Shown piece after piece: positions 9,530 to 30,646 of a stretch of 64,000 bases of DNA; positions within the stretch are counted from its first letter, which is position 1, and every line of letters begins with the position of its first letter. Position numbers and translations under genes: made by a program. The notes beneath the pieces were generated by a model. It made no database searches. It was not told the origin of the DNA and worked only from the letters and a program-made list of their open reading frames with translations. Source of the DNA: Candidatus Daviesbacteria bacterium (lineage in GTDB: Bacteria > Patescibacteriota > Microgenomatia > Daviesbacterales > UBA10151); assembly GCA_016176335.1 (NCBI GenBank), contig JACOXI010000003.1:113104-177103 (forward strand), read 5' to 3'.

Positions 9530-9601
9530 GAGTTAAAAGTCGTGTTACTTAAAGAACTTTAAAACTTGCAAAAATAGATCGGTTTGTTTTACTGTTAGAG
9601 T

Positions 9602-11395: not shown

Positions 11396-11420
11396 GGAGA
11401 TAATAATCAACTTCGGTTTA

Positions 11421-15671: not shown

Positions 15672-15699
15672 GGTTTTGTATAGAAAAGTTTTCCAAAAC

Positions 15700-15790
15700 C
15701 TATGGACTGATTCCCTTCGACTTCGTCCTTCGATTTCACTCAGGACTTCGCTCAGGGTTATAATCAGTGTAGAGCTTCGGTCAACTAACT
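15700..15790. repeat. R2 GC-rich motif cluster (AGTCGAAGG / CCTGAGCG direct repeats) in the 5' leader of the 1416-aa gene
   Basis: Minus-sense reads CCCTGAGCGAAGTCCTGAGTGAAATCGAAGGACGAAGTCGAAGGG. The same motifs are found at 17975-18060 and 43600-43712, always just upstream of a gene and in the same relative orientation. Confidence 0.55.
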
Positions 15791-15884
15791 GTCAATCCTT
15801 CGACACTATGCTTCGGACTGATCTCCTTTCTAGATTGTTTATCGTAACGCCTTGCGGCTCTTCGTATATCGAATATCGCGGATT

Positions 15885-15930
15885 GCCGATAAACGATAAC
15901 CGATTAACGATAAACCATTAACCAATTACC
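15885..15930. repeat. R3 module CGATAAACGATAACCGATTAACGATAAACC (degenerate tandem 8-9-bp units) in upstream region of 1416-aa gene
   Basis: 29 of 31 nt identical to a segment inside tsaD (40402-40432). Related CGTATATCG / GTTTATCGT motifs flank the gene at 46768-47130. Confidence 0.55.
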
Positions 15931-16004
15931 TGCTTGATTTAATTCTGATTAAATCCTGATGATTTTGAGGCTAAATAATAGGCCTTCTACCTGCATATAT
16001 CTAT

Positions 16005-16283
16005 CTACTTTTCTTCTTGGTATAACTGGTCGTGAGTTCCCAATAAGACAAAGTAAACAACAACAACTTCTCCTTCACTCTTCTCTGCATAAATTGCCCG
16101 CCAATTTGCAGTTATATCAATGCTTCGCAGTCCTTGGTATGGTTCTTTTAACAGGTGGTTATCTAATTCAAAGTCATTAGGGTTTCTGGAGAAAATCAAA
16201 ACTTTTTCCTTGAAGCTCTTGCGAACTCTCACATCTGCTTTTTTCAGAGTGCGTAAAAAGATAGGGGAATATCTGATGATCAT
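16005..16283 (-). CDS. yafQ: YafQ/RelE-family type II toxin (ribosome-dependent mRNA interferase)
   Basis: 92 aa. HLLKEPYQGLRSIDITANWRAIY...LLGTHDQLY parallels E. coli YafQ (HPLQGSWKGYRDAHVEPDWILIY...RTGTHAALF). Overlaps the upstream dinJ by 4 nt. Confidence 0.75.
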   Translation of the reverse strand: MIIRYSPIFLRTLKKADVRVRKSFKEKVLIFSRNPNDFELDNHLLKEPYQGLRSIDITANWRAIYAEKSEGEVVVVYFVLLGTHDQLYQEEK

Positions 16284-16564
16284 ATTCCCTGTTTTTCAAG
16301 CCAAGCAACCGCTTCCTCTCCGGTTTTAAATGCCGGGGATGTTCTGCCTGCCTTCCAATCTTTCTCTGCTTGGCGGATAGCGTTTTTTAAGTACTCGCTC
16401 GGTTCTTCATCTCTGGCGCTAAACTCCACAGACTTTGTCCTAATAAACTGTTTTAAGAATGCCTTAATGACAACAGATAAAGGCATGCCAAGCGCTTCAG
16501 CTGTGGCTTGGGCTTCTTTTTTAGTTTTGGGGTCAACTTTGGCAACAACTACTGCATAACTCAT
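16280..16564 (-). CDS. dinJ: DinJ/RelB-family antitoxin
   Basis: 94 aa. N-terminal ribbon-helix-helix region (MSYAVVVAKVDPKTKKEAQATAEALGMPLSVVIKAFLKQF) typical of DinJ. Forms an operon with the toxin. Confidence 0.75.
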   Translation of the reverse strand: MSYAVVVAKVDPKTKKEAQATAEALGMPLSVVIKAFLKQFIRTKSVEFSARDEEPSEYLKNAIRQAEKDWKAGRTSPAFKTGEEAVAWLEKQGI

Positions 16565-16607
16565 GGTATACTAAAGTATATACATTGGTACACCCATTTG
16601 TCAACAG

Positions 16608-17963
16608 CTAAATTAACGTCCCATTGCATACATAACACTTTTCAGTGCAGTAATTTACCTCTCCACAACTGATACAGCTTTTACCTTTCTTGCCTGCTTC
16701 TCCTCCAAAAACACTGCTTATGCTTCTAACTATTCCTGAAATCAAATTGCCGATCTTACTGGCAATACCTCCAACTGAAAATCCTGCTGATAATCCGCAT
16801 CCTCCTGCAACTACCCTGACTGCCTGATAACCCAGCCAGTTAACCTTCTCTTCCAAAGTCTTAAAAATAGGCATGATTTTATTTACAATTTTAGATGTCA
16901 TGCTTACCACTTTATCTTTTATACCAACTAAACCCTCCCAAATATAATCTGCTCCATTCAAAACAGCATTTAGGGCAACTTTTACCTGCTCGGGTGCAAA
17001 AACTGATCCACATATTCTATCTACCAAACAATGTATAAGGTCTGAACTCCCCTGGGCAATTTTTTGAAAACCCTCTTCTTTTAAAGCATTTTTCCTTTGT
17101 ATTAAGATCTCACCGCTACTTTCAAAAATAGGATTAGCCAGCAACCACTGATCTTTTGACCCTACCCTTCCATTAAAATAATCCGGTCTTGAAGCGGTTA
17201 TCATCTCTTCTGCCTGCTCATAACTTAAGTCTGAGGCAAAACGAGTCATTTGAACTATTCTTCTTCGAGTAAATGGGTCTTCTAAAAGCTCGTAACGATC
17301 CAAGAAATTATCAGTGAATATAGTACCTTCTACTAAACCAGGCCCTGAGATAACTTCAACTTTTAAATCTACTGGGGCGTTTGGATCTGCAAAAGCTTTC
17401 TGTATTTTTACAATACCAACCTTCTCTTGTTCTATTCTTGGAACATCATGTGATCCCATTTGCCTGTAATATTCAATGCCAACTGTTAAAACGTCTTCAA
17501 AAGCTTGATTGGGTAAATCCCTACTTCTTAACTTGCCATCATCATCAATATCATAAATAACAATACTGGTGGCTACATGGTAGCGTTCTCTTAGAGCAGT
17601 TTCTATCTGCTTTATTTCATGAAGTTTAAACTGTTTTCTTTCTTCTTCGGTTTGCAGAGTCTCAAACATTGCTCTTTCTAAAACAGGATTATAATTTCTA
17701 ACAGGCCCTCTTGCTTTTGTTTCTAAACTTCCATCAAATTGATTTTGTAATCTTGCTACTCTTGCTAAATATTCTTCAGTATCGAGTTTTTGTGTGTTAG
17801 AAACCCCTGTAGGGGGTAAGATTCGCTCGATTGGTCGCGCAATAACTATTGTATTATTAAAAGGGGAAACCTGTTCTCGTCTACCTCCTACATCCGGTTG
17901 AATTAAAATATCTAACTGCTTAAGATTTGGGGGTGTTAAATGTTGAAGTGTCTCTACTGACAT
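16608..17963 (-). CDS. Hypothetical 451-aa protein with Gly-rich segment and C-terminal Cys4 zinc-ribbon-like tail (CISCGEVNYCTEKCYVCNG)
   Basis: Long ORF. SD-like AGGAG lies 4 nt upstream of the ATG. No recognisable enzymatic motif. Confidence 0.7.
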   Translation of the reverse strand: MSVETLQHLTPPNLKQLDILIQPDVGGRREQVSPFNNTIVIARPIERILPPTGVSNTQKLDTEEYLARVARLQNQFDGSLETKARGPVRNYNPVLERAMFETLQTEEERKQFKLHEIKQIETALRERYHVATSIVIYDIDDDGKLRSRDLPNQAFEDVLTVGIEYYRQMGSHDVPRIEQEKVGIVKIQKAFADPNAPVDLKVEVISGPGLVEGTIFTDNFLDRYELLEDPFTRRRIVQMTRFASDLSYEQAEEMITASRPDYFNGRVGSKDQWLLANPIFESSGEILIQRKNALKEEGFQKIAQGSSDLIHCLVDRICGSVFAPEQVKVALNAVLNGADYIWEGLVGIKDKVVSMTSKIVNKIMPIFKTLEEKVNWLGYQAVRVVAGGCGLSAGFSVGGIASKIGNLISGIVRSISSVFGGEAGKKGKSCISCGEVNYCTEKCYVCNGTLI

Positions 17964-17974
17964 ATTGCTCCTGC

Positions 17975-18060
17975 AACGGGACCCTTCGACTACGCTCAGG
18001 GTAAATTGTGGTCGGTCTCCTGGCTCTTCGACTCGCTTCGCTCGCTCAGAGCTATAGCTT
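17975..18060. repeat. R2 GC-rich motif cluster upstream of the 451-aa gene
   Basis: Minus-sense reads TCTGAGCGAGCGAAGCGAGTCGAAGAG ... CCCTGAGCGTAGTCGAAGGG, directly before the RBS and ATG. Confidence 0.55.
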
Positions 18061-18163
18061 ACCGAATCACAGTTGCGGCACAGCCCCGGACTTACACCGG
18101 GTTCCCTTTTTGTATCTTCTCCCGCTTAAAGGCGGCATGATACACCACGTTTTAAGAATAACA

Positions 18164-18262
18164 ACTCAAAACTCAAATGTCAAAACTCAAAATTACAAAT
18201 CAAATCTCAAAACTTTTTAGATTTAAGATGTAGATTTGCGATTTGAGATCTAAGATTGAGAT
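18164..18262 (+). repeat. Dispersed ~100-bp repeat R1, copy b
   Basis: CTCAAAACTCAAATGTCAAAACT ... GATGTAGATTTGCGATTTGAGATCTAA. Matches 15-118 and the reverse complement of 45630-45735. Lies about 80 nt upstream of the gene at 18341. Confidence 0.55.
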
Positions 18263-18340
18263 TAGTAGAGATTGTCCCATAATGATCCCTTTTGTGCTGC
18301 TTGCCATCATTTTTTTCACATTGTATACATTTAAGTAATT

Positions 18341-19384
18341 ATGGAATCGCACCCAATCCCACAAAATGTCACCACTTTCCAGTTCCACCTGGTTGGGGAT
18401 ATGACCTTAAAGCAATTTATATACCTTGCCACAGGCTCCGGATTAGCCTATTTTGTGTTTATTTTTTTTGTGGCGGATTATCCATATTTTGCTTGGCCGC
18501 TGATCTTGACTGCTGCCGGGTTGGGAACAGCTTTTGCCTTCTTGCCTATAAATTCCAGACCATTGGATTATTGGACTGCAGCTTTTTTAAAAGCAATTTA
18601 TTCACCCACCAAAAGAGTCTGGAAGAAAAATAATAAATCTTACCAGGAAGATCCTACCTTTAACAGCAGGCTTTTCACATATTTAGCAGGTCTTCAGCCT
18701 ATTCAACAGCAACCTGTACCTCCCGTCTATAATCCACCGCATGTTGCAAAGTCTGTCACCGCAGAAGCTCCACCCCTGCCCACCCCCGAACAGTTGGGAA
18801 AAACAGTTGATCTGGCAAGACAGGCACAAAACCTGCAAATGAAAATAATCCAAACCGAGCGAACCCTAAATCAGATTAAGACAGCCGCACAAAGTCCAAC
18901 CCAAATACCTGTTGATTACACGCAACAAGTTAATACCGTGCTGTCAGATTTGCAAAATCTGGTCACCCAAGCATCTCAAATCAAACAACAGATTGAGTTT
19001 GTTCATCAGCCTGAACCTACAAACACCCTTCCTTTGCCAATTGCCCCAAGGCCGAAGGTGACAGTAATTGTTCCTACCAAAGCAAAAGTGACCCAAGTGG
19101 CCCTGACCACATTCCCCAATGTCATAAACGGCATAGTTAAAGATGCCAATGCCAATTACCTGGAAGGAGTGGTGGTGGTAATTTATGATAAGGAAGGATT
19201 GCCTGTCAGAGCGCTGAAAACAAACAAATTAGGTCAGTTTACAGGTTCTACCCCCTTGCCAAACAGTATTTACACTGTTGAGCTGGAGAAAGATGGATTT
19301 GCTTTTGATGTTTTGCAGGTTGAATTAACAGGCACAACTTTACCGCCTTTAACAATTACGGCAAAGGGGCCGGGAGTTTCCTGA
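18341..19384 (+). CDS. VirB3/PrgI-like membrane protein with extended Gln/Pro-rich C-terminal region
   Basis: N-terminal pair of TM helices (LAYFVFIFFVADYPYFAWPLILTAAGLGTAFAFL) resembles the VirB3/PrgI family. Lies immediately upstream of the VirB4 genes. Function is inferred from position and topology. Confidence 0.4.
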   Translation: MESHPIPQNVTTFQFHLVGDMTLKQFIYLATGSGLAYFVFIFFVADYPYFAWPLILTAAGLGTAFAFLPINSRPLDYWTAAFLKAIYSPTKRVWKKNNKSYQEDPTFNSRLFTYLAGLQPIQQQPVPPVYNPPHVAKSVTAEAPPLPTPEQLGKTVDLARQAQNLQMKIIQTERTLNQIKTAAQSPTQIPVDYTQQVNTVLSDLQNLVTQASQIKQQIEFVHQPEPTNTLPLPIAPRPKVTVIVPTKAKVTQVALTTFPNVINGIVKDANANYLEGVVVVIYDKEGLPVRALKTNKLGQFTGSTPLPNSIYTVELEKDGFAFDVLQVELTGTTLPPLTITAKGPGVS

Positions 19385-19385
19385 A

Positions 19386-20135
19386 ATGAGTACAACGCAA
19401 CAACATCTGTCCATATCTGACATCAAAGACAATATAATTTTGCTAAAAGACGGCGGCGGGGCCTTGGTTTTGCAAATTTCCGCCGTAAACTTCAGGCTTC
19501 TATCTGAACGTGAGCAAATTGCCATCATCAGTAGCTTTGCCCAAATGTTAAACTCGCTTTCTTTTTCTATCCAAATCCTAATTTTTTCAGAAAGATTAAA
19601 TATCAACTCTTATCTTGTGCTTTTGGATAAAGCCCAAAAATTACAGTCTAATCCGATGCTTTCCAATATGATCATAAATTACCGCCAGTTTATCCAAAAT
19701 ACCATCAAGGAAAACGAGGTCCTGGATAAAAAATTCTATCTAGTGATCCCGCTTTTTAATCTGGAGCTGGGGCTTGCACCCACCAGAGTTATTTTGCAAC
19801 AAAAAATCAAAACCATACTGCTTCCCAGAAGAGATCAAATAATAAGACAGCTTTCAAGAGTGGGGCTGGCAGCAATCCAACTGAACACAAATGAGCTGAT
19901 TGAACTATTTTATGATATTTACAATGGCCAGTTTGTGGAAAGTATGGCCTCAAAGCCAATTAGCGCCGATACAATGCAGGTCCAATTAAACCAACCTCAA
20001 GAGGCTGTTAAAACTTCAACATACAAATCTCAAGTTGTTGATCAACCCCAAGCTCCGCTACAACCAAGCCCTGCTACTACCCAGTCATCAAGAACACACC
20101 CGTTTGTGGTGGAGGAGTTAGATGAAAATACCTAA
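19386..20135 (+). CDS. VirB4 N-terminal-domain-like protein (no ATPase motifs)
   Basis: SISDIKDNIILLKDGGGALVLQISAVNFRLLSEREQ resembles the N-terminus of Gram-positive VirB4/TraE/PrgJ homologues. Overlaps the next ORF by 14 nt in a different frame. Confidence 0.45.
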   Translation: MSTTQQHLSISDIKDNIILLKDGGGALVLQISAVNFRLLSEREQIAIISSFAQMLNSLSFSIQILIFSERLNINSYLVLLDKAQKLQSNPMLSNMIINYRQFIQNTIKENEVLDKKFYLVIPLFNLELGLAPTRVILQQKIKTILLPRRDQIIRQLSRVGLAAIQLNTNELIELFYDIYNGQFVESMASKPISADTMQVQLNQPQEAVKTSTYKSQVVDQPQAPLQPSPATTQSSRTHPFVVEELDENT

Positions 20136-21879
20136 TCCTTTTAAAAAACAACCTGACGAGCAATCCACTCCTACCCAACTAACTATTGAGGATGTGCTTG
20201 CTCCGCAGGAGATTGAGGTTGATTTCCATAACTTAAGGATCAATGACCGTTTTTTTAGGACTTACTTTATCTCCAATTACCCGCGGTTTGTGGAACCGAA
20301 CTGGCTGGAGCCAATAATATCTTTTGATCACTCGCTTTTGATATCGATGTTTATATACCCTTCCCAATCTGCCGGTGTATTGGATGATTTAAAAAGAAAG
20401 ATTGCCGAGATGGAAGCAACAATACAAACGGATTTTGAGCGGGGAAGAGCCATAGACCCGTCTGTTGAGGTGGCTTTGGAAGACGCCAGGGGTTTACAGG
20501 AACAGTTGGTCAAAGGGGTTGAGAGATTTTTCCAGTTTGCCCTTTATGTGACCATTCCCTCCGCAAGCTTAGAAGAATTACACAATACCTCAAAACTGGT
20601 TGAATCAACGCTTGCATCTTTATCTATGAGCGCAAAAGTGACATCTTTGCAGATGGAAGACGGGTTCAAATCAACTCTCCCGCAAGGAACGGATTTGTTA
20701 AATCTAACCTATAATATGGACACTACCTCCTTGGCAACAACCTTTCCTTTTGCCTCATCGGAGCTGACAGCTAATGAAGGTATTATGTATGGAATCAACG
20801 AACATAATGATTCGCTCATACTTTTTGACAGGTTTAGCTTGGAGAACGCCAATTCTGTGATTTTTGCCAAAGCCGGAGCCGGGAAATCATATCTGGTTAA
20901 ACTTGAAGCCTTACGTTCTTTGATGTTTGGGACGGAGATTATTATCATCGATCCTGAACAGGAATACTTACCTTTATCGCAAGCTGTGGGAGGAGAATTT
21001 ATTAACTTTTCCGCCTCATCTCCTATTAAAATAAACCCGTTCGACTTAAATCCGCAACTGGCATCCGGTGAAAATGAGTTGGGGAGGAAAATTCTATCTT
21101 TGACCGCATTCTTAAAACTGGTTTTGGGTAATTTAAGCGCAACAGAGGCGGCAATACTGGACAGATCCTTAAAACAAACATACCAGCAAAAGGGAATTAC
21201 GGATGATCCTAAAACGCAAGATCGACAACCACCTTTAATGGAGGATTTGTACAAAGTTTTAATGGGCATGGAAGAACCATCTGCCCTGGAACTTGCGGCA
21301 AGATTGGAAAGATTTATTAAAGGCTCTTTGACCGGAATATTTTCTGCCCAATCAAATGTGGCAATTGCCAATGCCTTTACGGTTTTTTCGGTCAGAGACT
21401 TGCCGGACCAACTACGACCTTTGGCAATACACATGATTTTGGAGTATGTTTGGACCAAAATAAGAAGCAGGCTTAAAAAAAGAATCCTGATTGTTGATGA
21501 AGCCTGGTATCTGATGAGAAATGCTGACAGCGCAGATTTTTTGGTGGATATGGCCAAAAGGTCAAGAAAATACTATTTGGGTTTAACCACTATAACGCAG
21601 GATGTTGAGGATTTTTTGACAACGGAGAGAGGAAAAGAAATCATCTCAAATTCCTCAATTCAAGTTCTTTTAAAACAAGCGCCTGTTTCAATTGACCTTT
21701 TGGCCAAGGTGTTTAATCTGTCCGAGGGCGAACAAAGACTGCTGCTGTCAGAGGGAATAGGACAAGGATTGTTTTTTGCAGGCAATACTCATGTTGCCAT
21801 GAGAGTGGTTGCCTCACCGAAGGAACACCAACTCATCACCTCAAACCCGCAAGAGATTTTGGCAAGACAAAGTGTTTAA
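20122..21879 (+). CDS. VirB4/TraE-like conjugal-transfer-type ATPase
   Basis: Walker A FAKAGAGKSY and Walker B ILIVDEAWYLM. The N-terminal YFISNYPRFVEPNWLEPI motif is typical of VirB4. Confidence 0.75.
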   Translation: MKIPNPFKKQPDEQSTPTQLTIEDVLAPQEIEVDFHNLRINDRFFRTYFISNYPRFVEPNWLEPIISFDHSLLISMFIYPSQSAGVLDDLKRKIAEMEATIQTDFERGRAIDPSVEVALEDARGLQEQLVKGVERFFQFALYVTIPSASLEELHNTSKLVESTLASLSMSAKVTSLQMEDGFKSTLPQGTDLLNLTYNMDTTSLATTFPFASSELTANEGIMYGINEHNDSLILFDRFSLENANSVIFAKAGAGKSYLVKLEALRSLMFGTEIIIIDPEQEYLPLSQAVGGEFINFSASSPIKINPFDLNPQLASGENELGRKILSLTAFLKLVLGNLSATEAAILDRSLKQTYQQKGITDDPKTQDRQPPLMEDLYKVLMGMEEPSALELAARLERFIKGSLTGIFSAQSNVAIANAFTVFSVRDLPDQLRPLAIHMILEYVWTKIRSRLKKRILIVDEAWYLMRNADSADFLVDMAKRSRKYYLGLTTITQDVEDFLTTERGKEIISNSSIQVLLKQAPVSIDLLAKVFNLSEGEQRLLLSEGIGQGLFFAGNTHVAMRVVASPKEHQLITSNPQEILARQSV

Positions 21880-21894
21880 TGATACTCTACTAAT

Positions 21895-24135
21895 ATGGCT
21901 GGTCAAGATGTTAATTTTTATAAATATCTAGAAGCTGCTTTTAGGTTTAAATTATTTAATCCCGAAGGTCAAAGAGCCGGTTTTGATACTCATTTTAATC
22001 ACTTAAATTATAACCTGACTTACAAGCAGATTTTCTTTTATGCCAGAAAAATTCTGCCCAAATTTTATACCAGTGAATTCCCCGATACTGAAGAAGGTAA
22101 TCTGCAAATGGCCAAAAAGGTTTTGGAACAGCTGGACAAACATCAAGATACCCAGCTTGAGAATCAATTTAAATCAGTTACTGTTTCAGAGGAAAATACT
22201 CAAATCATAACTGAAGCGCAAGCACAGTCACAACAAACTGAAGCGATATCCACACAAACACCAGTTGGTACATCCGAAGGTATGATGAGTGGGCCAGGTT
22301 TACCTTCTGCTCCATCTAAATCTTTCGGGCCGCGGCGTGTTTTTATTGCCAACCAGACCCCTCCACCTGCAGGAGGCATGGAGGGAGGAATAGGCCAAGG
22401 CACGGCTGCTACTAATAAAGCAAATGCCAAAGCAAGCAGGCTGGAAGCTGAAACAAACCGGCTAAATGTGCAAACTGCTGCTCCCCGAAGATTTAACTGG
22501 GGTGGCTTTAAAATACCTGCCTCATTTACAAATGCAGCCAAAAATTTTGGTTCTGAGTCCCAAAGATTTATCGGTACAAATTTAGGGAGAATTGGCAAGG
22601 GTCTTGGAGAAATAGCCGGAGGATTAGGCAGAGGGATTGCCGGCCCTGCTCTTACCGGTACATACAATCTCCTGGGAAAAGCAGGCAGTGGCAGCCTTAA
22701 TGCTTTTGAAAGAATAACCAGACCAGGAGGCACAGGAGGAGGCGGAATAGGCAGAGGATTATCCAAATCCTCAAACAAATTAGCCTGGGGTTTGATCGGG
22801 ATAATGTTGTTTTTTGTCTTATTCGGCAGTATGTTAGGCGGCCTGGCAGGAACTACACCCACCGGTCAAGCCAGCCCAATTGGATCCATTGGATCTTTTG
22901 ATATTAGTAGTTGTAAATTTACAAGAGGCCAAGAAAATCCCAAAGAAGCCACTTTTAAAAGCAATAAACTTCTTTCGTATATTCAAGAGGCATCCCAAAA
23001 ATCAAACATCCCTCCTGCAGTACTTGCAGCCTTTATCAGGGTAGAGTCCCCCTCTTCATCCAATATGTCAGACGATCAGATTTCCAATTATTCTGCAAAT
23101 TGTGTACAAAGCTCTACAGGAGCACTGGGAATTATGCAGATCCAACCTTCTGGTACAACTTCTGCTAGAGGAGACCCGGCAAGTTGCGATGACTGCATTG
23201 ATGCGGGAGCCAAACTGATGGGTAAAACTGTTTCCACTATGACTAGGCAGGATTATTGTGATCCAAGAACAAATATCATTGTAGGAGCTGGTTGGATTTT
23301 AAAAAAAATGAGCAAATTAGGTTATGGCGATAGCACAAAATGGGATACTGCATGGACTAATGACAGAAAAGCAATTGAAGCCTTGGTCAATACTTACTAT
23401 GGATGCTTGCAATATGGAGACGCAACAAAAGACTGCGCCGGCCCCTATAACTATGCCGATGATGTTTCCACTAGTATCCAAAACTGCCAAGCGCAATCCC
23501 AAACAGTTCCGCCCCCACTAGCAGATGGAAATTATAAAAAATGGGTTCAGGATTTTGGAATCAATATTAATGACGGCTTTGTGCCGGATGTTTATAAATG
23601 GGCTTATGAAGTTTTAGCTTCTACATCTAGTATAGCGCCCAAATTTAAAGACCGCCTGGGTAGTACTCTCATTGAGATCAAACCAACCTGCGATATTTCC
23701 AAAACTAGCGGACGGATAATCTTTCTAAGAAATAAAATTCAATTCTGTCCCGGAGCAACTAAAGATGGGCCAACCGCTGATGAAAAACTGTTTAAACAAG
23801 TCTTTATTCACGAACTGGGACATATTATTAATGGATCATCCAGACCAGGCAAATATGGAGATCAAATCAAACAAGCTATTGCTGCTGAGGGATATCTCAC
23901 TGCTTATTCTCAAAAAGCAGCTACTGCAGATGATGAAATCTGCGGAGCCGCCGACTTAAATACCAGAGCTGATGAAGACTTTGCAGAAAGTATCTCTTAC
24001 TTTGTTAACCAAGGAATCAAAGAACAAGATTATGGGTGTGGTACAAACCTTAATCAAAACCCCATCTATGCTCAAGATAACAATCATCCTTTATACCTTA
24101 AGCATATTCAACTAATGATTGATTTGTTAAGATAA
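21895..24135 (+). CDS. Bifunctional cell-wall hydrolase: Gly-rich region + TM + lytic transglycosylase (SLT) domain + C-terminal HExxH metallopeptidase-like domain (VirB1/PrgK-type role)
   Basis: SLT signature ES...GALGIMQIQP, and FIHELGHIING. Position directly after virB4 matches T4SS-associated muramidases. Confidence 0.65.
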   Translation: MAGQDVNFYKYLEAAFRFKLFNPEGQRAGFDTHFNHLNYNLTYKQIFFYARKILPKFYTSEFPDTEEGNLQMAKKVLEQLDKHQDTQLENQFKSVTVSEENTQIITEAQAQSQQTEAISTQTPVGTSEGMMSGPGLPSAPSKSFGPRRVFIANQTPPPAGGMEGGIGQGTAATNKANAKASRLEAETNRLNVQTAAPRRFNWGGFKIPASFTNAAKNFGSESQRFIGTNLGRIGKGLGEIAGGLGRGIAGPALTGTYNLLGKAGSGSLNAFERITRPGGTGGGGIGRGLSKSSNKLAWGLIGIMLFFVLFGSMLGGLAGTTPTGQASPIGSIGSFDISSCKFTRGQENPKEATFKSNKLLSYIQEASQKSNIPPAVLAAFIRVESPSSSNMSDDQISNYSANCVQSSTGALGIMQIQPSGTTSARGDPASCDDCIDAGAKLMGKTVSTMTRQDYCDPRTNIIVGAGWILKKMSKLGYGDSTKWDTAWTNDRKAIEALVNTYYGCLQYGDATKDCAGPYNYADDVSTSIQNCQAQSQTVPPPLADGNYKKWVQDFGININDGFVPDVYKWAYEVLASTSSIAPKFKDRLGSTLIEIKPTCDISKTSGRIIFLRNKIQFCPGATKDGPTADEKLFKQVFIHELGHIINGSSRPGKYGDQIKQAIAAEGYLTAYSQKAATADDEICGAADLNTRADEDFAESISYFVNQGIKEQDYGCGTNLNQNPIYAQDNNHPLYLKHIQLMIDLLR

Positions 24136-24143
24136 AACTTACA

Positions 24144-24611
24144 ATGAGGCAAAAAACAATAGTTATATTGGGGATTTTGGGAGCGATAATTTTACTGTTA
24201 ATCTCTCAAAAAGTTTTGCTTGTCAGACCGATTTCTCTTCCATCCGGCACCCAGCCATCATCAACGCCTTCCCAGAACTCAACTCAACCAAATGAATCCC
24301 CCAAAATTTTATCCACCAAACCAGATCCTTTGGATCAGGCTGTTATATCATCGGATCAGCAGATTGAAATTGTATTTAACAGAGGCTTGGAAAACGAGGG
24401 CGAGTTTAAGATCAGAATAGAACCAAAAGTAAAGTATAAAATAACTCTTTCCGGGGATCATAAAACCGCCAAAATTACCCCAGAGGAATCATATGAGCTG
24501 GGAGTTGGCTACACCATGTTTATCACAGGAGATACCAAATTCGAAGGTGTGGGGCCTTGGGGGGAGGAAAAAACCTTCCATTTCCAAACCATAAAATACA
24601 GAGGTATCTAA
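24144..24611 (+). CDS. Small membrane-anchored protein with Ig-like beta-rich ectodomain
   Basis: 155 aa. N-terminal TM anchor and a Ser/Thr/Pro linker. Last gene of the + strand T4SS-like block. Confidence 0.5.
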   Translation: MRQKTIVILGILGAIILLLISQKVLLVRPISLPSGTQPSSTPSQNSTQPNESPKILSTKPDPLDQAVISSDQQIEIVFNRGLENEGEFKIRIEPKVKYKITLSGDHKTAKITPEESYELGVGYTMFITGDTKFEGVGPWGEEKTFHFQTIKYRGI

Positions 24612-25708
24612 TTGGTCCTGACCGGCATTACAATATATTCCAACCCCTCAACTCCGACAGGTTTTACTCGCGCAGCAGAAAGAGATCCTGAAAATTCAAT
24701 CATAATTTGTAAAGACGGAGAATTTGTCACTGCATCCAGCAAAAACTTTGAATTAAAAGCAATCTGAAGGTTGTCACCCTCAACATTTGCCTCAATCTCG
24801 TTTTGTTGGCTGCCCAATTCTTTGGCAGAGGATTCGATTTTCATTCTGCTTTTTTCCAGGGTCAAAATAACAATATTGGTTTCGTTTTTGGCAAAAACAG
24901 CTGCCAATTTTACGGCCTTTAAAAGCTCTTCTTTATCCACCATCACTCTTGTGACTATTTCTGTCGGGATGATTTTTTCCCAAGAGGGGAATTGACCTTC
25001 AATCAGCCTGGAGGAAAGTAATGTTTTCCCTAAATTAAAAACCACCTGGTTTTGATCACTAGAGGCTGCAAGCTCAATCTTATCCACCTCTGTTTCCGAA
25101 ATAATCCGCAATACTTCCTCAAATGTTCTTCTTGGGATCAAGCTTTTAAACTGAATCTCTTTACCTTGAAGTTTAACTCTCCTGTGAGCCAGCCTAAAGC
25201 CGTCTGTTGCCACAAAATCAACCTTTCCCCCTGAAACATCAGTCAAAACTCCTGTTAAAACAGGACGCCCTTCGTCAACAGCCGCTGCAAAAAGGATTTG
25301 GGAAGAAGACAAAACTATTTCTTTTGACAGCTCTACCCCGTCTTTGGCAGATAAAGGAATAGCAGGGAATTCTGTTGCCGGAATACAGTTTATACTAGCC
25401 TTAAACTTGTTGCTTTCAACCACCAGACCCTCTCCTTCTGTTGTAACAGTCACTTTGGATTGACCCAAGCCGGAGACCAGTTCAATCAGGGTTTTTGCGG
25501 GAACCGTGATACTGCCTTCCTCAAAAACCTCCACATTAATAGACCGTATAACCCCAATCTCCAAATTGGTGGCAGCAACTTTCAGCTTTTTACCTTCTGT
25601 CGAAAGCAGAATATTATCCAAAACAGGCAGGGTGGATCTTATTCCTACAGACCTCCCGACAGCTTGCAAGTGCGGCAATAAATCCTGTTGTAAAGTGGAA
25701 AATTTCAT
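24608..25708 (-). CDS. dnaN: DNA polymerase III beta sliding clamp
   Basis: 366 aa. Typical DnaN start (MKFSTLQQDLL..LQAV) and three-domain length. Follows dnaA with one gene in between. Confidence 0.9.
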   Translation of the reverse strand: MKFSTLQQDLLPHLQAVGRSVGIRSTLPVLDNILLSTEGKKLKVAATNLEIGVIRSINVEVFEEGSITVPAKTLIELVSGLGQSKVTVTTEGEGLVVESNKFKASINCIPATEFPAIPLSAKDGVELSKEIVLSSSQILFAAAVDEGRPVLTGVLTDVSGGKVDFVATDGFRLAHRRVKLQGKEIQFKSLIPRRTFEEVLRIISETEVDKIELAASSDQNQVVFNLGKTLLSSRLIEGQFPSWEKIIPTEIVTRVMVDKEELLKAVKLAAVFAKNETNIVILTLEKSRMKIESSAKELGSQQNEIEANVEGDNLQIAFNSKFLLDAVTNSPSLQIMIEFSGSLSAARVKPVGVEGLEYIVMPVRTN

Positions 25709-26166
25709 TCCCGACCTTCTTTCTTGGCAGTAACAAATTTTTGTATCTCTTCTTCGGTAACCTTTATTAATCTGAAGTTAACACGACCGGCAGCAATTAG
25801 GTTTTTAATGTGTTTTTCCTCGTCTGTCAAGAGGAAACTTTGTCCACTCTTTACTTCGATAAAATCAATTTTGTCCCCGTTTTTTATACCGATAAAATCA
25901 ATAGGCCAGCCAAGCGGGATGATTCTGTCGTAATCATAGCGTAGTTCGGCGTAGGTCAAAAGTTCTGCCATTCTTCCTTTTTGAGGGTTGATAGAACCCT
26001 GAATTGTTTGTAAAATCCTCAAAGGTAAATCCTGCACTCCTTTGTACAAATCTATTAAATCTTGTGGTATATCGGTTTTCCCTCTTCCGTGTAGTCTTCC
26101 AAAAAGATAAGTAATGATAAGTGCTGAGACAATTAAGATGATAACAACCCAGTTAAAATTATCCAC
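25705..26166 (-). CDS. Membrane-anchored NERD/Hjc-like PD-(D/E)xK nuclease-fold protein
   Basis: N-terminal TM (VVIILIVSALIITYLF). Catalytic-core-like AELLTYAELRY...PIDFIGIKNGDKIDFIEVKSG (E...D...EVK). Sits between dnaA and dnaN. Confidence 0.55.
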   Translation of the reverse strand: MDNFNWVVIILIVSALIITYLFGRLHGRGKTDIPQDLIDLYKGVQDLPLRILQTIQGSINPQKGRMAELLTYAELRYDYDRIIPLGWPIDFIGIKNGDKIDFIEVKSGQSFLLTDEEKHIKNLIAAGRVNFRLIKVTEEEIQKFVTAKKEGRE

Positions 26167-26298
26167 CGCGTCTTCCGATTATACTACAGCTTATTAATAT
26201 TAATAGTAGTAAATAATATGTTCGGTGGATATGTTGAGAACTTAAAACTTTGTGTTTGGGATTCGCCAAAAATTCGTGTTGATGCTCGGTTTATTTTT

Positions 26299-26338
26299 AG
26301 TGGATAACTTGTGGACAAACTAATTTGTATGTGGATAA
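26299..26338. promoter_or_regulatory. Cluster of three DnaA boxes (aGTGGATAA, TGTGGACAA, TGTGGATAA) with adjacent AT-rich tract (26195-26220); candidate oriC / DnaA-regulated region
   Basis: Matches the 9-mer consensus TTATCCACA / TGTGGATAA at 26299-26307, 26310-26318 and 26330-26338. A further 8/9 box lies at 26159-26167. Confidence 0.6.
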
Positions 26339-26343
26339 ATCAG

Positions 26344-27660
26344 TTAATTTGTAATTCTGTTTTTTATCTCAATAAGCATCCGCTGTACTTCTCTGTCTGT
26401 GGCGACAAGTTTTTTTATCTTGTCCCTGCCGTGCATGACAGTGGTATGGTCCCTGCCGCCTAAAATTTGTCCGATTCTTTCAACAGTCATTTTAAGATGT
26501 TCGCTTAAGATAAACATGGTGATGTGTCTTGGTAAGACCAACTCTTTTTGTCTTTTGGAGCCGGCCAGTTCTTTTTGAGTCAGGTTGAAGTAACCGCATA
26601 CTGTTGCCAAGACCTGTTTAGAGTCAACCTTGGGGTTGTTTTTGGGGGGGCTTTGTAAATACCTGCCTATATTTTCTGTTGTAGGAGGTAAATTTTGAGT
26701 TTTTAACATCTGTAAAATCCCAACAAGTTTCCCCTCAAGCTCTCTGATATTGGTATCAAAAGATGAGGCTAAAAGCTGCAGGGCTTCTTCTTCCAAAATT
26801 ACTCCTTGTTCCAAGCATTTTGCCCGGAGAATTGCCACCCGGGTGTCAAAATCAGGTTGTTGTATATCAATCATTAAGCCTCCGGCAAAGCGTGATTTTA
26901 ATCTGTCTTCGATTTTTGCTATTTCGTTGGGAGATCTGTCAGATGTTAAAACTATCTGGGAGTTTTTGCCGATTAGTTCGTTAAATGTATGAAAAAACTC
27001 CTCCTGTGTTCCTTCTCTGCCTGAAAAGAATTGGATGTCATCTACCAACAGAACATCCGAAGAACGGTATTTTTTTCTTAAATCCCCCATTTTATGAGTT
27101 TGTATGGCCTCAACATAATCGTTCATAAATTTTTCAGAAGAGCAGTAAATAATTTTGCCATGAGGTTTCTTAGATAAAATTGCATTGCCGATACCAAGCA
27201 TAAGATGCGTTTTGCCAACACCGGTTCCGCCATAAATAAACAAAGGATTGTATGATGCTCCGGGGCTTGTGACAACTGCCAAAGCTGCGGCATATGCAAC
27301 ATTGTTGGAAGGCCCCACCACAAAATTTTCCAAGCTATATTTGGGGTTTAGGTAAGAAGTTTGCCTTTGTGCCGGCTGGAAAAAATCTTCATCGTTCGTT
27401 TCTGGTTGTTTATCAACCTCTTTTACAATAAACTCAACATTTATTTTTTTATCTAAAAGTTTTTCAAAAGTATCCGCAATAATTTCTTTATATTTTTGCT
27501 GCAGAGTTTCTTTTATAAAAGCTGAAGGCGTGCTTAAAATAATTTTGTCCCCCACATAACTTTTTACAGTGGTTTTTATAAAATAGGCCTTAAAATTATC
27601 AGCTCCTGCCAAGGGTTTGATAAGTTGTAAAAATTTATGCCAGAGCCTTAAATTATCCAT
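26344..27660 (-). CDS. dnaA: Chromosomal replication initiator DnaA
   Basis: 438 aa. AAA+ Walker A GGTGVGKTHLMLGIGNAI and Walker B LLVDDIQFFSG. C-terminal DNA-binding helix-turn-helix. Confidence 0.95.
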   Translation of the reverse strand: MDNLRLWHKFLQLIKPLAGADNFKAYFIKTTVKSYVGDKIILSTPSAFIKETLQQKYKEIIADTFEKLLDKKINVEFIVKEVDKQPETNDEDFFQPAQRQTSYLNPKYSLENFVVGPSNNVAYAAALAVVTSPGASYNPLFIYGGTGVGKTHLMLGIGNAILSKKPHGKIIYCSSEKFMNDYVEAIQTHKMGDLRKKYRSSDVLLVDDIQFFSGREGTQEEFFHTFNELIGKNSQIVLTSDRSPNEIAKIEDRLKSRFAGGLMIDIQQPDFDTRVAILRAKCLEQGVILEEEALQLLASSFDTNIRELEGKLVGILQMLKTQNLPPTTENIGRYLQSPPKNNPKVDSKQVLATVCGYFNLTQKELAGSKRQKELVLPRHITMFILSEHLKMTVERIGQILGGRDHTTVMHGRDKIKKLVATDREVQRMLIEIKNRITN

Positions 27661-27680
27661 GGTTCGGTAAACTCTTCACA

Positions 27681-27713
27681 TGTGTGGAAAACTTATCCAC
27701 AATTTAATCCACA
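27681..27713. promoter_or_regulatory. DnaA-box cluster upstream of dnaA (TTTTCCACA on minus strand, TTATCCACA, TAATCCACA)
   Basis: Consensus 9-mers at 27682-27690 (reverse complement), 27693-27701 and 27705-27713. Likely a dnaA autoregulation site or an alternative oriC half. Confidence 0.55.
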
Positions 27714-27815
27714 AAATAAAAAGAGGCAATATGCAGAAACTATTAAAAAGTAGATCAAAAATTTTTATTAGGAAAATATTGGATAAACCACTAAAGTCTG
27801 TTATAATTTTTCTTG

Positions 27816-28085
27816 ATGGACGAATCGAAGCCTGTTGGAAGCCAACAAATAACGGTAAGAGTTCCGGATAGTGTTGGGGGTGGAGTTTACGCAACCGTGG
27901 TTAAAGTGAACATAACGGATAATGAGGTTGTATTAGATTTTATCTTCAATACAAATAATCCAGGGGAACAAGCAATGCTGGTTAGTAGGACTGTAGTTTC
28001 TATCAAGACGGCGCAGCAATTATCTGATATACTAGAAGCCCTTCTTAGGAAACGAGAGCATGCATTGAAAGGAGATGAAAAATGA
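27816..28085 (+). CDS. DUF3467-like small protein
   Basis: ITVRVPDSVGGGVYATVVKVNITDNEVVLDFIFNT...AMLVSRTVVSIKTAQQL fits the DUF3467 pattern (GVYaN...EFVlDF...vvSRi.mSp.hAk.L). ATG at 27816. An extended -10 TGTTATAAT lies at 27799-27807. Confidence 0.5.
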   Translation: MDESKPVGSQQITVRVPDSVGGGVYATVVKVNITDNEVVLDFIFNTNNPGEQAMLVSRTVVSIKTAQQLSDILEALLRKREHALKGDEK

Positions 28086-28300
28086 CACAAGTAATGATTG
28101 TACCTACGAATATCGGGAAAATAAACTATAAACCCTCTTTAAATCAATACACCCTTACATACCCAGCAGCAGTCGATCCTGAAACCCGCAAAGATTTAAG
28201 CGACAAAAAACACCTGTCTGCTGTTAAAAGCGCGAGAAAGGATTACGGAAAAGGATTATTAGTAGAAGAGGATAAGATTATTAAAAAGCTAAAGGGTTAA
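28082..28300 (+). CDS. Putative antitoxin partner of the downstream RelE/ParE-like toxin
   Basis: 72-aa ORF ending 10 nt upstream of the toxin gene. Assigned by operon context only. Confidence 0.4.
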   Translation: MTQVMIVPTNIGKINYKPSLNQYTLTYPAAVDPETRKDLSDKKHLSAVKSARKDYGKGLLVEEDKIIKKLKG

Positions 28301-28309
28301 CGGTTAAAA

Positions 28310-28582
28310 GTGACTGCTAATGATTTTCGAATCAATTATACAAAATCCTTTACTAAAAATTTATTCAAATTAGTTAAAGGTGATCCCCCGCTAAATAAAA
28401 AATTTTTAAAAGCAATTGGTAAGCTAAAAAGAGATCCTTACCAAGGACAAAGACTTGAGGATGTAAGCTTAGGCGAGAGACGTATTTGGGTAGGAGATAA
28501 TTATAGACTCTTTTATGATATTGAGGGAGGAGATATCGTTTTACTTTATCTAAAGAAGAAAGATAAAAAGACTTACAGGTGA
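28310..28582 (+). CDS. RelE/ParE-family type II toxin
   Basis: 90 aa. C-terminal RIWVGDNYRLFYDIEGGDIVLLYLKKKDKKTY matches the RelE/ParE core (RIxxGDYRhhYxI.....I.hL.h.hRKD.Y). Confidence 0.7.
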   Translation: MTANDFRINYTKSFTKNLFKLVKGDPPLNKKFLKAIGKLKRDPYQGQRLEDVSLGERRIWVGDNYRLFYDIEGGDIVLLYLKKKDKKTYR

Positions 28583-28618
28583 TTGATTTTTTTCAAGTAA
28601 GTTTGTAAACTTACGCAT

Positions 28619-28756
28619 ATGCCAAAGAGAACGTATCAGCCTAAAAAATTAAAAAGAAAAAGAAAACACGGTTTCCGCTCAAGGATGGCAACCCGGGACG
28701 GAGCTAAAGTTTTACAAAGAAGAAGAGCCCGCGGCAGGAGAAAGTTAACAGTCTGA
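28619..28756 (+). CDS. rpmH: 50S ribosomal protein L34
   Basis: Translation [45 protein letters not shown] (45 aa). It is below the ORF-track cutoff and was found by manual translation. Directly precedes rnpA. Confidence 0.85.
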
Positions 28757-29094
28757 TGCTTCCAAAATCCAAACGCCTTAACCTCAAAAAAGATTTTAAA
28801 TGGGTTGCATCTGGCAAAAAAATAGAAAGCAAGTACGCAAAACTTTTTATTAAGATCGGGGATAATACAAATCCTCGGGTTAGTATTGCTGTTTCATCCA
28901 GTCTTTTTAAAAAAGCGACTGAACGAAACAGAGCTAGACGACTTGTTGCCGAAGCTTTCCATAATACATACTACTTACTACCTAATACTATTAATATAGT
29001 GGCTCTTCCCAAACATAAGGTACTTGAGGTAAAATCATCTGACGTGTTTTTGGATTTGCAGAAACTATTAAAGGATGAAAAGATTATTGGGTAG
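28756..29094 (+). CDS. rnpA: RNase P protein component
   Basis: 112 aa, basic. Start overlaps the rpmH stop (TGATG). Canonical rpmH-rnpA-yidD-yidC order. Confidence 0.85.
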   Translation: MLPKSKRLNLKKDFKWVASGKKIESKYAKLFIKIGDNTNPRVSIAVSSSLFKKATERNRARRLVAEAFHNTYYLLPNTINIVALPKHKVLEVKSSDVFLDLQKLLKDEKIIG

Positions 29095-29275
29095 TTTAAT
29101 TTCGGTTTATCAAACTTATCTTTCTTTTGACAGAGGGCTGCTGTCTGTATTTGCTCCGGGAGGTGCTTGTAGATTTTCTCCAACTTGTTCGGAGTACACA
29201 AAACTGATGATCGGGGAATTCGGGGCATTCAGAGGAAGTTGGATGGGGTTAAAAAGACTGTGGAGGTGTCGTTAA
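29075..29275 (+). CDS. yidD: Membrane protein insertion efficiency factor YidD
   Basis: 66 aa. FAPGGACRFSPTCSEYTKLMIGEFGAFRGSWMGLKRLWRC is the conserved YidD core. Confidence 0.85.
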   Translation: MKRLLGSLISVYQTYLSFDRGLLSVFAPGGACRFSPTCSEYTKLMIGEFGAFRGSWMGLKRLWRCR

Positions 29276-29280
29276 TAAAA

Positions 29281-30126
29281 ATGGGCGGGATTGTTGATCT
29301 TTTTAATTTAGTTTTCATGGGGCCTGTAATCAATCTCTTGGTACTTATATTCCAGGGATTGCAAGCTGTGCATATTCCCGGAGCCCTGGGCTTTGCGATA
29401 GTAATTTTAACTGTTGCTATAAGGATTTTGGTGTGGCCTTTTATGTCAAGTCAGATCAAAGCTACAAAAAAAATGAGTGATTTAAAGCCTCACTTGGATG
29501 AGTTAAAGAAGCAACACAAAGACGACAAAAAAGCCTTAGCTTCTGCACAAATGGCTTTATATAAAGAGCACGGAGTCAATCCTGCCGGCGGTTGTTTGCC
29601 GGCTCTGATCCAAATTCCGGTATTCATTGCACTATATCAATCAATAATCAATATCTTGCCGGGGGCAGGTGGACATATTGATCGGATTAACTCGCTGTTG
29701 TATTTTCCGCAGTTGAAGCTTCCTGCAACTTTAGATCCTAATTTTTTAGGACTTAATTTAGGATTTAAGCCGTCTGAATTTGGGAACCATGGGGCGTATC
29801 TTCTTTTAGTCCCCCTTATTACAGCCCTTTTAACATTTGTTCAATCTAAAATGGCTTTGCCTGTACCGATCAAGCATCATGTGGGTGAACCGGCTAAGGA
29901 GACCAAAGAAAAAGAAGGACTGGAGGAGAGTATGGGTCAGGTGCAGTCGCAAATGGTTTATATGATGCCTTTGATGATTGGGTATTTTGCTTTCTCATTT
30001 CCAATAGGGCTTGCAATTTATTGGAATACATATACAATACTGGGAATTATCCAGCAGCATAGAATATCAGGCTGGGGAGGGATATCCGGCTTCGCTGGAA
30101 AGTTCAAAATTTTAAGCATAAAGTGA
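29281..30126 (+). CDS. yidC: Membrane protein insertase YidC (short Gram-positive-type form)
   Basis: ATG at 29281, after the yidD stop. Five TM helices and the conserved C-terminal region. In the rnpA-yidD-yidC operon. Confidence 0.85.
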   Translation: MGGIVDLFNLVFMGPVINLLVLIFQGLQAVHIPGALGFAIVILTVAIRILVWPFMSSQIKATKKMSDLKPHLDELKKQHKDDKKALASAQMALYKEHGVNPAGGCLPALIQIPVFIALYQSIINILPGAGGHIDRINSLLYFPQLKLPATLDPNFLGLNLGFKPSEFGNHGAYLLLVPLITALLTFVQSKMALPVPIKHHVGEPAKETKEKEGLEESMGQVQSQMVYMMPLMIGYFAFSFPIGLAIYWNTYTILGIIQQHRISGWGGISGFAGKFKILSIK

Positions 30127-30133
30127 AAAGTTT

Positions 30134-30646
30134 ATGGAACAGCAACTATCTGAAGTTTTAGATAATATATTGGGGTTGTTACTTCTTGAGGGAAGTTATG
30201 AAATAGAGGAGACCGAAGACGGATTTATTGTTTCCATAGAAACACAAGATGCAGGGAGGCTGATTGGGGTCAGGGGGGAATCTTTAGATGCTCTCCAGTT
30301 AATTATTAACCAAATTATGTCCCGTGGTCAAAAGATCGGTGAGTTTAAAAGGATGATTTTGGATGTTTCCGGTTGGAGAAAGCAGAGGGAAGAAGATTTA
30401 AAAAGGAGTGCAGAGGATTGGGGTAAACAAGTTCTGGATTCAGGTAAGGAAATGGAGCTTGAGCCAATGAGTTCTTGGCAAAGAAGAGTTGTGCATATGG
30501 TGGTGGGTGAGATGAAAGGATTGGAGACTGAAAGTTTGGGAGAGGGTAGAGACAGACATGTGGTGATAAAACTCAAATCTCAAAATTCAAAACTCAAAAC
30601 TAAAAAAGAAGAGCCAAATACAGATGCTGAAACTAAAGAAGATTGA
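30134..30646 (+). CDS. jag: Jag/KhpB-like RNA-binding protein (KH + R3H domains)
   Basis: RLIGVRGESLDALQLII (KH motif) and a C-terminal R3H-like region (WQRRVVHMVVGEM). Conserved partner immediately downstream of yidC. Confidence 0.8.
   Translation: MEQQLSEVLDNILGLLLLEGSYEIEETEDGFIVSIETQDAGRLIGVRGESLDALQLIINQIMSRGQKIGEFKRMILDVSGWRKQREEDLKRSAEDWGKQVLDSGKEMELEPMSSWQRRVVHMVVGEMKGLETESLGEGRDRHVVIKLKSQNSKLKTKKEEPNTDAETKED

Follow-up and report, generated by a model that had tools for sequence, protein, structure and literature searches.

PF10107 (COG4741, 'Endonuclease related to archaeal Holliday junction resolvase') is a family known from computational work, in which its members were recognised as minimal PD-(D/E)xK nucleases that carry a membrane helix and the motif E-(V/I)D-E(V/I)K (Feder & Bujnicki 2005, PMC1189080; Steczkiewicz et al. 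2012, PMC3424549). It has been described as mostly archaeal and 'secreted', with neither a function nor a genomic context (PMC1189080, PMC3424549). Here we analyse a bacterial member, a protein of 153 amino acids encoded between dnaA and dnaN in a stretch of 64,000 nucleotides of Candidatus Daviesbacteria bacterium (assembly GCA_016176335.1, contig JACOXI010000003.1, positions 113,104 to 177,103 of the forward strand). This whole stretch is called the window, and all coordinates refer to it. The best hits likewise assign the window to Candidatus Daviesbacteria (Microgenomates). The organism is one of the candidate phyla radiation (CPR), whose bacteria are mostly uncultured and in whose very small genomes replication and repair are little known.

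Hjc, VRR-NUC and RecU, with which the protein can be compared, are enzymes of branched DNA. The Daviesbacteria protein has the N-terminal transmembrane helix, the core of four strands and two helices and the E-(V/I)D-E(V/I)K motif of PF10107. Unlike the family as described, its gene is bacterial, present throughout the lineage, linked to the origin and coupled to dnaN, and for its catalytic domain a cytoplasmic location is predicted. It differs from archaeal Hjc and Hje (PF01870; PDB entries 1gef and 1ob8) in having a membrane anchor, the element LPxxVLxxIQGSIN and a shorter core, and PF01870 is not matched. VRR-NUC domains (PF08774; PDB entry 4qbn; FAN1) share 13–14% identity with it, give no Pfam match and are soluble or fused to other domains. 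With RecU of the Firmicutes (PDB entry 1y1o) the analogy is functional; RecU has a stalk, lacks a membrane anchor and is encoded away from the origin. The origin of Bacillus subtilis is reportedly bipartite and combines DnaA boxes with DnaA-trios and an unwinding element rich in AT in the dnaA-dnaN interval, a model said to be due to Richardson and colleagues in 2016.

PF10107 is a known but uncharacterised family, and several Daviesbacteria orthologues already carry the label 'Holliday junction resolvase-like protein' in their NCBI annotation. In a limited literature search we found no description of a lineage-wide insertion between oriC and dnaN, of conservation above that of DnaA or of 5' signals embedded in the origin, and nothing specific on Daviesbacteria plus dnaA or on CPR resolvases. 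The locus gives PF10107/COG4741 a first biological context, and the nuclease is a testable candidate for a lineage-specific factor of replication, recombination or DNA intake.

The nuclease gene between the origin and dnaN

The gene occupies positions 25705–26166 of the minus strand and starts with GTG. Its translation matches PF10107 over residues 54–135 with 36.2 bits, against a cut-off of 23.8 (E = 6.5e-9). In the same Pfam scan NERD (PF08378) and Hjc (PF01870) were not matched at E <= 1, and the protein does not belong to the YraN/UPF0102 profile. A transmembrane helix (residues ~6–24) is followed by a linker containing LPxxVLxxIQGSIN and by a minimal PD-(D/E)xK core (residues 65–137), in which the AlphaFold model and the alignments place an alpha-beta-beta-beta-alpha-beta arrangement with the E-(V/I)D-E(V/I)K motif. 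The catalytic set is formed by E68, I89-D90 and E104-V-K106. Two alignments of diverse PF10107 members, with 40 and 75 sequences, show E68, D90 and K106 without variation and either glutamate or aspartate at position 104; P48, G64, Y79 and the family-specific LPxxVLxxIQGSIN ahead of the core are also invariant. The model used was built from the 75-sequence alignment and has a predicted local distance difference test (pLDDT) score of 75, replacing one built from 28 close homologues with a pLDDT of 52. In its core the pLDDT reaches 80–94, and a helix is predicted at residues 2–26.

We are highly confident that the 153-residue protein is a membrane-anchored member of PF10107/COG4741, with an intact E...D...ExK site in a minimal PD-(D/E)xK core, probably of the Hjc/VRR-NUC-like kind. 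The original prediction, a note made from the sequence without database searches, had named a NERD/Hjc-like, transmembrane-anchored PD-(D/E)xK protein with an E...D...EVK motif, and had proposed profile scans for NERD, Hjc and YraN. The anchor and the motif are borne out, with E68, D90 and E104-V-K106 both present and conserved. The scans gave PF10107 rather than any of the three families named. A PD-(D/E)xK protein of the Hjc-like kind, with an intact triad, is supported; the NERD identity is rejected for want of a PF08378 match.

The hydrophobic 19-residue segment of the protein begins at residue 7 and has a Kyte-Doolittle score of 2.48. Such an N-terminal segment, with a score above 1.6, is found in 91% of 75 family members, and lysine and arginine residues flanking the helix number 3.4 after it against 1.1 before it. 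By the positive-inside rule, positive charge after rather than before the helix implies an N-out/C-in orientation, and the nuclease domain is predicted to face the cytoplasm; a cytosolic domain was also predicted in the 2005 family paper (PMC1189080). PADLOC and PHROGs contained no match to the nuclease, and the PDB sequences, searched with profiles of the nuclease family, gave spurious helix matches and no Hjc. A Foldseek comparison with viral models returned a 'Holliday junction resolvase-related' protein of an uncultured virus (E = 3e-4).

The relatives used for comparison are 80 species representatives of Daviesbacteria from GTDB genomes that carry the locus, 78 of them on a contig spanning the dnaA-nuclease-dnaN site. 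The order dnaA, oriC, nuclease, dnaN is present in 78 of these 78, an outcome that answers a check on position proposed in the original prediction. Two long Daviesbacteria contigs carry rpmH, dnaA, the PF10107 gene, dnaN, a Big_5 gene and type IV secretion system (T4SS)-like genes, a divergent one (70% identity, 1.06 Mb) has the same order from rpmH to the T4SS-like genes, and a metagenome scan added one further Daviesbacteria locus with dnaA, nuclease and dnaN in this order. The nuclease has the highest protein conservation among the seven locus genes compared: mean identity to the window proteins is 75.8% for the nuclease, 73.4% for L34, 61.8% for DnaA, 60.9% for DnaN and 57.3% for RnpA, and in 76 of 78 loci the nuclease is ahead of DnaA as well as of DnaN. 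Third codon positions that are four-fold degenerate have equally low identities in the nuclease, dnaA and dnaN genes, namely 0.36, 0.34 and 0.33. The constraint is therefore on the protein and not on the DNA, and a DNA-level cause of the conservation was rejected.

Downstream, the nuclease stop codon overlaps the start codon of dnaN (24608–25708, minus strand; beta sliding clamp of 366 amino acids, PF00712, PF02767 and PF02768) in an ATGA read from the window sequence, and in most relatives the two genes overlap or are separated by <=26 bp. With little doubt, then, the nuclease gene is fixed here across the lineage, under a protein constraint stronger than that on DnaA or DnaN.

About half of the GTDB representative records with a Daviesbacteria-type origin locus, loci L005, L006 and L014 included, are titled 'uncultured Gammaproteobacteria bacterium isolate binchicken_...'. 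Their nucleases are 65–88% identical and their synteny is the same, so these titles are a placeholder or a wrong taxonomy.

The replication origin

The gene for DnaA (26344–27660, minus strand; 438 amino acids, PF11638, PF00308 and PF08299) is flanked by DnaA boxes on both sides. Perfect boxes, TTATCCACA, occur twice in the whole 64 kb, at 26330–26338 and 27693–27701, once in each cluster. The first cluster lies just downstream of the dnaA stop codon, in the spacer of 177 bp that separates dnaA from the nuclease gene (between 26166 and 26344), and consists of three boxes co-oriented on the minus strand (26299–26338), the perfect one and two with one mismatch each (26310–26318 and 26299–26307). 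The second is upstream of dnaA (27683–27713), in the spacer of 152 bp before the DUF3467 gene (between 27660 and 27813); here the perfect box, on the plus strand, has a one-mismatch box on either side (27683–27691, minus strand, and 27705–27713, plus strand). With up to one mismatch allowed, the window contains 37 boxes, against 18.1 +/- 4.2 in shuffled sequences.

Continuing from the tandem boxes towards the nuclease, a conserved CAACACGAA element is located at 26273–26281 (minus strand); in the form [CA]ACACGAA it is present in 59 of 80 Daviesbacteria origins. A degenerate box with two mismatches, ATATCCACC, follows at 26224–26232 (minus strand), and a box ATCCAC[AC], or ATATCCAC(C/A), is found at this position in 74 of 80 relatives. 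It adjoins the AT-rich putative unwinding element (26185–26222), which has 84% AT against 60% window-wide and contains seven in-phase TAN triplets resembling DnaA-trios (TAT TAA TAT TAA TAG TAG TAA, 26192–26212). Under a loose definition of the trio, in-phase runs of >=3 occur in 40% of the relatives' spacers and in 1.4% of shuffles; the consensus of this region across relatives is in-phase triplets of the ATATTAATACTACTA type. Between the AT-rich element and the nuclease start a -10-like hexamer, TATAAT, can be read from the sequence (26178–26183, minus strand), and 63 of 80 relatives have it at the same place. The last element is a one-mismatch box, TTATCCACC, over the GTG start codon of the nuclease (26159–26167, plus strand), which reads GTGGATAA on the coding strand; GTGGA[TC]A[AT], of this type, is at or near the nuclease start codon in 52 of 80 relatives.

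The order common to the relatives is three tandem boxes, CAACACGAA, the ATATCCAC(C/A) box, ATATTAATACTACTA triplets with AT-rich DNA, TATAAT and GTGGATAA. Their dnaA-nuclease spacers contain 2–7 DnaA boxes (median 4), a density of 16.3 per kb compared with 0.96 per kb for the DNA around them, and the 250 nt upstream of dnaA, examined in 76 representatives, contain 1–3 boxes in all 76. The cumulative G-C skew, computed over the 64-kb window, has its global minimum at 26187, inside the AT tract; left of this point the skew is -0.070, right of it +0.100. The site is identified as a replication origin by its clusters of boxes, its AT-rich element and the minimum of the skew, and we conclude with high confidence that the window holds the chromosomal oriC of Candidatus Daviesbacteria, which is bipartite with its putative unwinding element downstream of dnaA. 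An origin neighbourhood with an AT-rich tract in the spacer upstream of the nuclease had been proposed in the original prediction, together with a skew analysis to locate it, and on these points it proves right. It had also counted three consensus boxes in that spacer and noted a second cluster; the locations are correct, and in each cluster one box is perfect, the other two having one mismatch.

This architecture resembles a B. subtilis-type origin in that box clusters flank dnaA on both sides, with the skew minimum there, and in that in-phase triplets of the TA(A/G) type and an AT-rich tract begin no more than about 11 nt after a box. It differs in the extra gene between the putative unwinding element and dnaN, and in the conserved TATAAT and inverted DnaA box between that element and the nuclease gene. 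The comparison of 80 loci defines the Daviesbacteria oriC architecture (boxes, trio-like element, AT tract, TATAAT and box), which could be used to orient and close genomes.

Family context and possible roles of the nuclease

Among 1.84 billion cluster representatives, searched exhaustively with HMMER, only 217 clusters had PF10107 homologues at E <= 0.001. Named relatives from outside Daviesbacteria are archaeal (Helarchaeota, Methanophagales and 'Pacearchaeota'). The nearest homologues outside Daviesbacteria are borne by archaea or elements and share 48–62% core identity, and the viral ones have 31–42%; the closest outgroup homologue, P0122, is 53% identical. Homologues at 34–40% identity are on phage-like contigs, two genes after a DnaG-DnaB primase-helicase, and their neighbours include a PDDEXK_1 nuclease and an Amidase_2 endolysin, to which one contig adds a weak match to T7 endonuclease I. 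IMG/VR contains 17 viral contigs with homologues, most with the same DNA-metabolism module, and no PF10107 homologue was found among the cultured phages of INPHARED or the plasmids of PLSDB. From these sequence relationships, the Daviesbacteria nuclease looks like an old acquisition from a viral, mobile-element or archaeal pool that was then fixed at the origin.

Several further features of the family were observed. Homologues at 48–56% identity adjoin giant open reading frames of about 1200 to 3900 amino acids without Pfam domains, on contigs of 20–190 kb (loci L085, 5001–5615; L086, 3597–4115; and L095, 5001–5474). One giant frame has an intein and in two of the loci a conserved gene of 88 amino acids follows; these contigs may be large archaeal elements or viruses. 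In the metagenomic proteins P0309, P0163 and P0375 (377 amino acids) the PF10107 domain is fused to HEAT repeats (PF13646, PF02985 and PF03130). A contig of a 'Candidatus Pacearchaeota' metagenome-assembled genome (NZCX01000010.1, 61,922 bp; loci L094 and L100) agrees with an IMG/VR viral contig in length in bp and in locus range. Given this agreement and its genes for DnaG-DnaB, a T4 endonuclease V-like protein and Amidase_2, it is probably a phage binned into the genome.

The role that we favour, tentatively and at somewhat less than an even chance, is that of a membrane-tethered, structure-specific nuclease acting on branched DNA and expressed with the clamp. It is suggested by the fold class, the replication-module context of the viral relatives, the coupling to dnaN and the extreme conservation. 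The nuclease and dnaN would probably share a transcript, begun at a promoter within the edge of the unwinding element and marked by the conserved TATAAT, and the DnaA box over the nuclease start codon might place expression of the nuclease under DnaA control. With promoter and box so placed, its expression would be tied to initiation and to DnaA occupancy. The protein would be a dimeric endonuclease facing the cytoplasm, its substrates being Holliday junctions, reversed forks or late replication intermediates, and its role a RecU/Hjc-like housekeeping one in replication, recombination or segregation, not cleavage of the origin.

Several points weigh against this. A resolvase would not be expected to be tethered to the membrane, and no canonical beta-clamp-binding motif was found (0 of 28). 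One of the viral relatives (L096) also encodes a T7-endonuclease-I-type resolvase, by a weak Pfam match, so that the PF10107 protein there is probably not the junction resolvase. The promoter assignment is founded on one conserved hexamer, and origin synteny is conserved anyway, so position by itself is no proof of a functional link. The 64-kb window encodes neither RuvC nor RecU, which is uninformative for the whole genome, and PF10107 has no biochemically characterised member (PMC1189080, PMC3424549). A stronger form of the same proposal appears improbable to us: an essential replication-coupled factor of Daviesbacteria, produced from inside the origin and DnaA-controlled together with the clamp, that would cut branched intermediates of replication or recombination at a membrane-attached replisome or division site and replace RuvC/RecU-type resolvases in such reduced genomes. 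If true, it would give PF10107 its first function and define a new kind of origin-embedded operon.

Competence nucleases such as EndA and NucA combine an N-terminal anchor with a nuclease domain, and CPR bacteria are thought to depend on nucleotide salvage. The main rival to a branched-DNA role, which we judge rather unlikely, is a DNA-entry nuclease at the inner face of the membrane, which would cut phage DNA, as a means of defence or of superinfection exclusion, or DNA imported for salvage; through co-expression with replication genes the supply of nucleotides would be matched to the demand. The anchor-plus-nuclease layout fits such a role, as do the T4SS-like cluster adjoining dnaN and the occurrence of the family on uncultured viral contigs and large elements, nucleases of phage DNA-metabolism modules being commonly degraders of host DNA. 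A guard against foreign DNA, or nucleotide production, was also what the original family paper speculated (PMC1189080). The catalytic domain, however, is predicted to be cytoplasmic where those of EndA and NucA are external, PADLOC defence models are unmatched, and neither a mechanism to tell self from non-self nor a partner gene is apparent. Variability is moreover the rule among defence genes, whereas the nuclease gene is fixed, with a conservation above that of DnaA.

The same fixity bears on the idea, quite unlikely in our estimation, that the position is a historical accident: a nuclease of a virus or mobile element would have landed beside oriC in the Daviesbacteria ancestor and stayed through the stability of origin synteny, serving the cell in some way unconnected with replication or persisting as a toxic or addictive element. 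The archaeal or element-borne nature of the nearest outside homologues agrees with this, as do the proven insertion hotspot on the other side of dnaA and the synteny, in relatives, of the whole 10-kb neighbourhood with its T4SS-like genes. Against it stand the strongest protein conservation of the seven locus genes compared, the translational coupling to dnaN, the conserved TATAAT and DnaA box at the 5' end, loss in 0 of 78 species and the absence of an immunity or antitoxin gene beside it. The original prediction had suggested a relation to origin processing or membrane tethering. A non-catalytic tether between oriC and membrane, or an enzyme nicking or processing the origin, would suit a membrane anchor joined to a DNA-binding fold and a gene abutting the unwinding element, but is very improbable. 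A tether would have no need of E68, D90, E/D104 and K106, which are kept family-wide and disfavour this idea; the viral and element-borne members have no such origin context, and the core of ~75 residues has no origin-specific recognition domain.

The rpmH-dnaA gap and the surrounding genes

On the other side of dnaA the canonical origin-flanking operon is found on the plus strand, made up of rpmH (28619–28756), rnpA (28756–29094), yidD (29075–29275), yidC (29185–30126) and jag/KhpB (30134–30646). This order (28619–30646) is retained in relatives. Between dnaA and rpmH three genes are inserted, likewise on the plus strand. The first encodes a DUF3467 protein of 90 amino acids (27813–28085; PF11950, 45.6 bits against a cut-off of 25, E = 7e-12) and is preceded by a promoter-like site (TGGATA, 16 nt and TATAAT, with TG; 27780–27807, plus strand), which is a consensus match only. 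The second, a putative antitoxin of 72 amino acids (28082–28300), belongs to no Pfam family and to no known antitoxin family in Pfam, NCBIfam, PADLOC or PHROGs. The third starts with GTG and encodes a RelE/ParE-superfamily toxin of 90 amino acids (28310–28582; PF05016, 29.2 bits against a cut-off of 23), which also matches PHROG 1213, 'RelE-like toxin' (E = 6e-7), while the specific NCBIfam subfamilies all remain below their cut-offs (TIGR02385, 21.7 bits). PADLOC and PHROGs have no match for DUF3467.

None of the three proteins has a homologue in the 80 species representatives. The rpmH-dnaA gap, measured in 76 of these, is shorter than 260 bp in 48 and 388–2416 bp long in 28. Among the contents of the longer gaps are HepT plus MNT (L054 and L022), AbiEii (L006 and L072), Fic (L018) and HEPN with DUF3800 (L057), and also a NusG-like protein, an aspartyl protease, a methyltransferase and PPDK fragments. 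With unrelated cargo in 28 of 76 genomes, toxin-antitoxin and defence genes among it, the gap is an insertion hotspot. L089, a 98% relative, has the trio itself at this site, and so does L114, where its proteins are 74, 61 and 70% identical to those of the window and DnaA only 58%. In L090/L091 it is located at a different genomic site, with identities of 57, 28 (E = 0.003) and 42%. This amounts to four instances of the three-gene order at two genomic sites. The DUF3467 stop codon overlaps the next start codon by 4 nt (ATGA) in the window and in L090, and the 72-residue frame ends 9 nt upstream of the toxin gene, the two being conserved together in L089, L114 and L090; it is this middle gene that is 61% identical in L114 and 28% (E = 0.003) in L090.

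The trio is thus, very probably, a mobile three-gene module of DUF3467, small reading frame and ParE/RelE toxin, carried as accessory, strain-specific cargo in the hotspot. The gene order rpmH-rnpA-yidD-yidC-jag / dnaA-dnaN and the DUF3467 plus RelE-type toxin-antitoxin cassette between dnaA and rpmH were both read correctly in the original prediction, as the reading-frame map and the Pfam matches attest. Its description 'extra cargo' for both insertions holds for the cassette, absent from all 80 representatives and set in a hotspot, and fails for the nuclease, which is very strongly conserved and present in 78 of 78.

Like type II RelE/ParE pairs, the module has a PF05016 toxin with a small, tightly linked upstream gene; unlike them, its middle gene is of no known antitoxin family. 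It resembles tripartite systems (omega-epsilon-zeta, paaR-paaA-parE and toxin-antitoxin-chaperone) in its third, co-oriented and overlapping gene and in its mobile, patchy distribution, and differs from them in that this gene is DUF3467, no known regulator or SecB-like chaperone. As a SecB-like chaperone DUF3467 found no support by sequence: hhalign of its alignment against E. coli SecB gave a probability of 0.13%, and the PDB sequences were unmatched. It is possible, though we doubt it, that DUF3467 is an independent neighbour of a two-gene RelE/ParE pair and not a third component. DUF3467 is a broad Pfam family without a known toxin-antitoxin link, the one paper found mentioning it is unrelated, and by sequence it resembles neither SecB nor any solved structure; the ATGA overlap with the middle gene and the recurrence of the order in four instances at two sites speak against independence. 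The recurrent DUF3467-led trio may merit a test. It possibly holds a new third component, and if it does, DUF3467 in a RelE/ParE module would be a second, smaller novelty. The cassette also serves as a caution that toxin-antitoxin genes beside dnaA in Daviesbacteria are interchangeable hotspot cargo, outside the origin.

Beyond dnaN, a T4SS-like cluster of the Gram-positive type (5046–24611) ends convergently on this gene. It comprises T4SS_pilin (5046–6290), a PrgI-like gene (18341–19384), a frame of 249 amino acids in a TraC-like position (19386–20135), which lacks a Pfam match in the window and owes its name to the syntenic gene of relatives, a VirB4-like ATPase (20122–21879), an SLT transglycosylase (21895–24135) and the Big_5 protein (24144–24611, plus strand, from the reading-frame map and Pfam). 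The dnaN-proximal part, Big_5 included, is syntenic in Daviesbacteria relatives. A second PD-(D/E)xK protein, a PDDEXK_1 member of the Cas4/RecB-like kind with 281 amino acids, is encoded at 41540–42385 (plus strand), 15 kb from the origin, and adjoins a LigT-like 2',5' RNA ligase gene. Finally, a cobalamin riboswitch (RF00174, 62 bits; 17993–18164, minus strand) is located directly upstream of a frame of 451 amino acids (16608–17963, minus strand), followed by one of 1416 amino acids (11421–15671, minus strand), both without a Pfam match; together they may form a B12-regulated system for uptake or binding, so far unrecognised, in this CPR genome.

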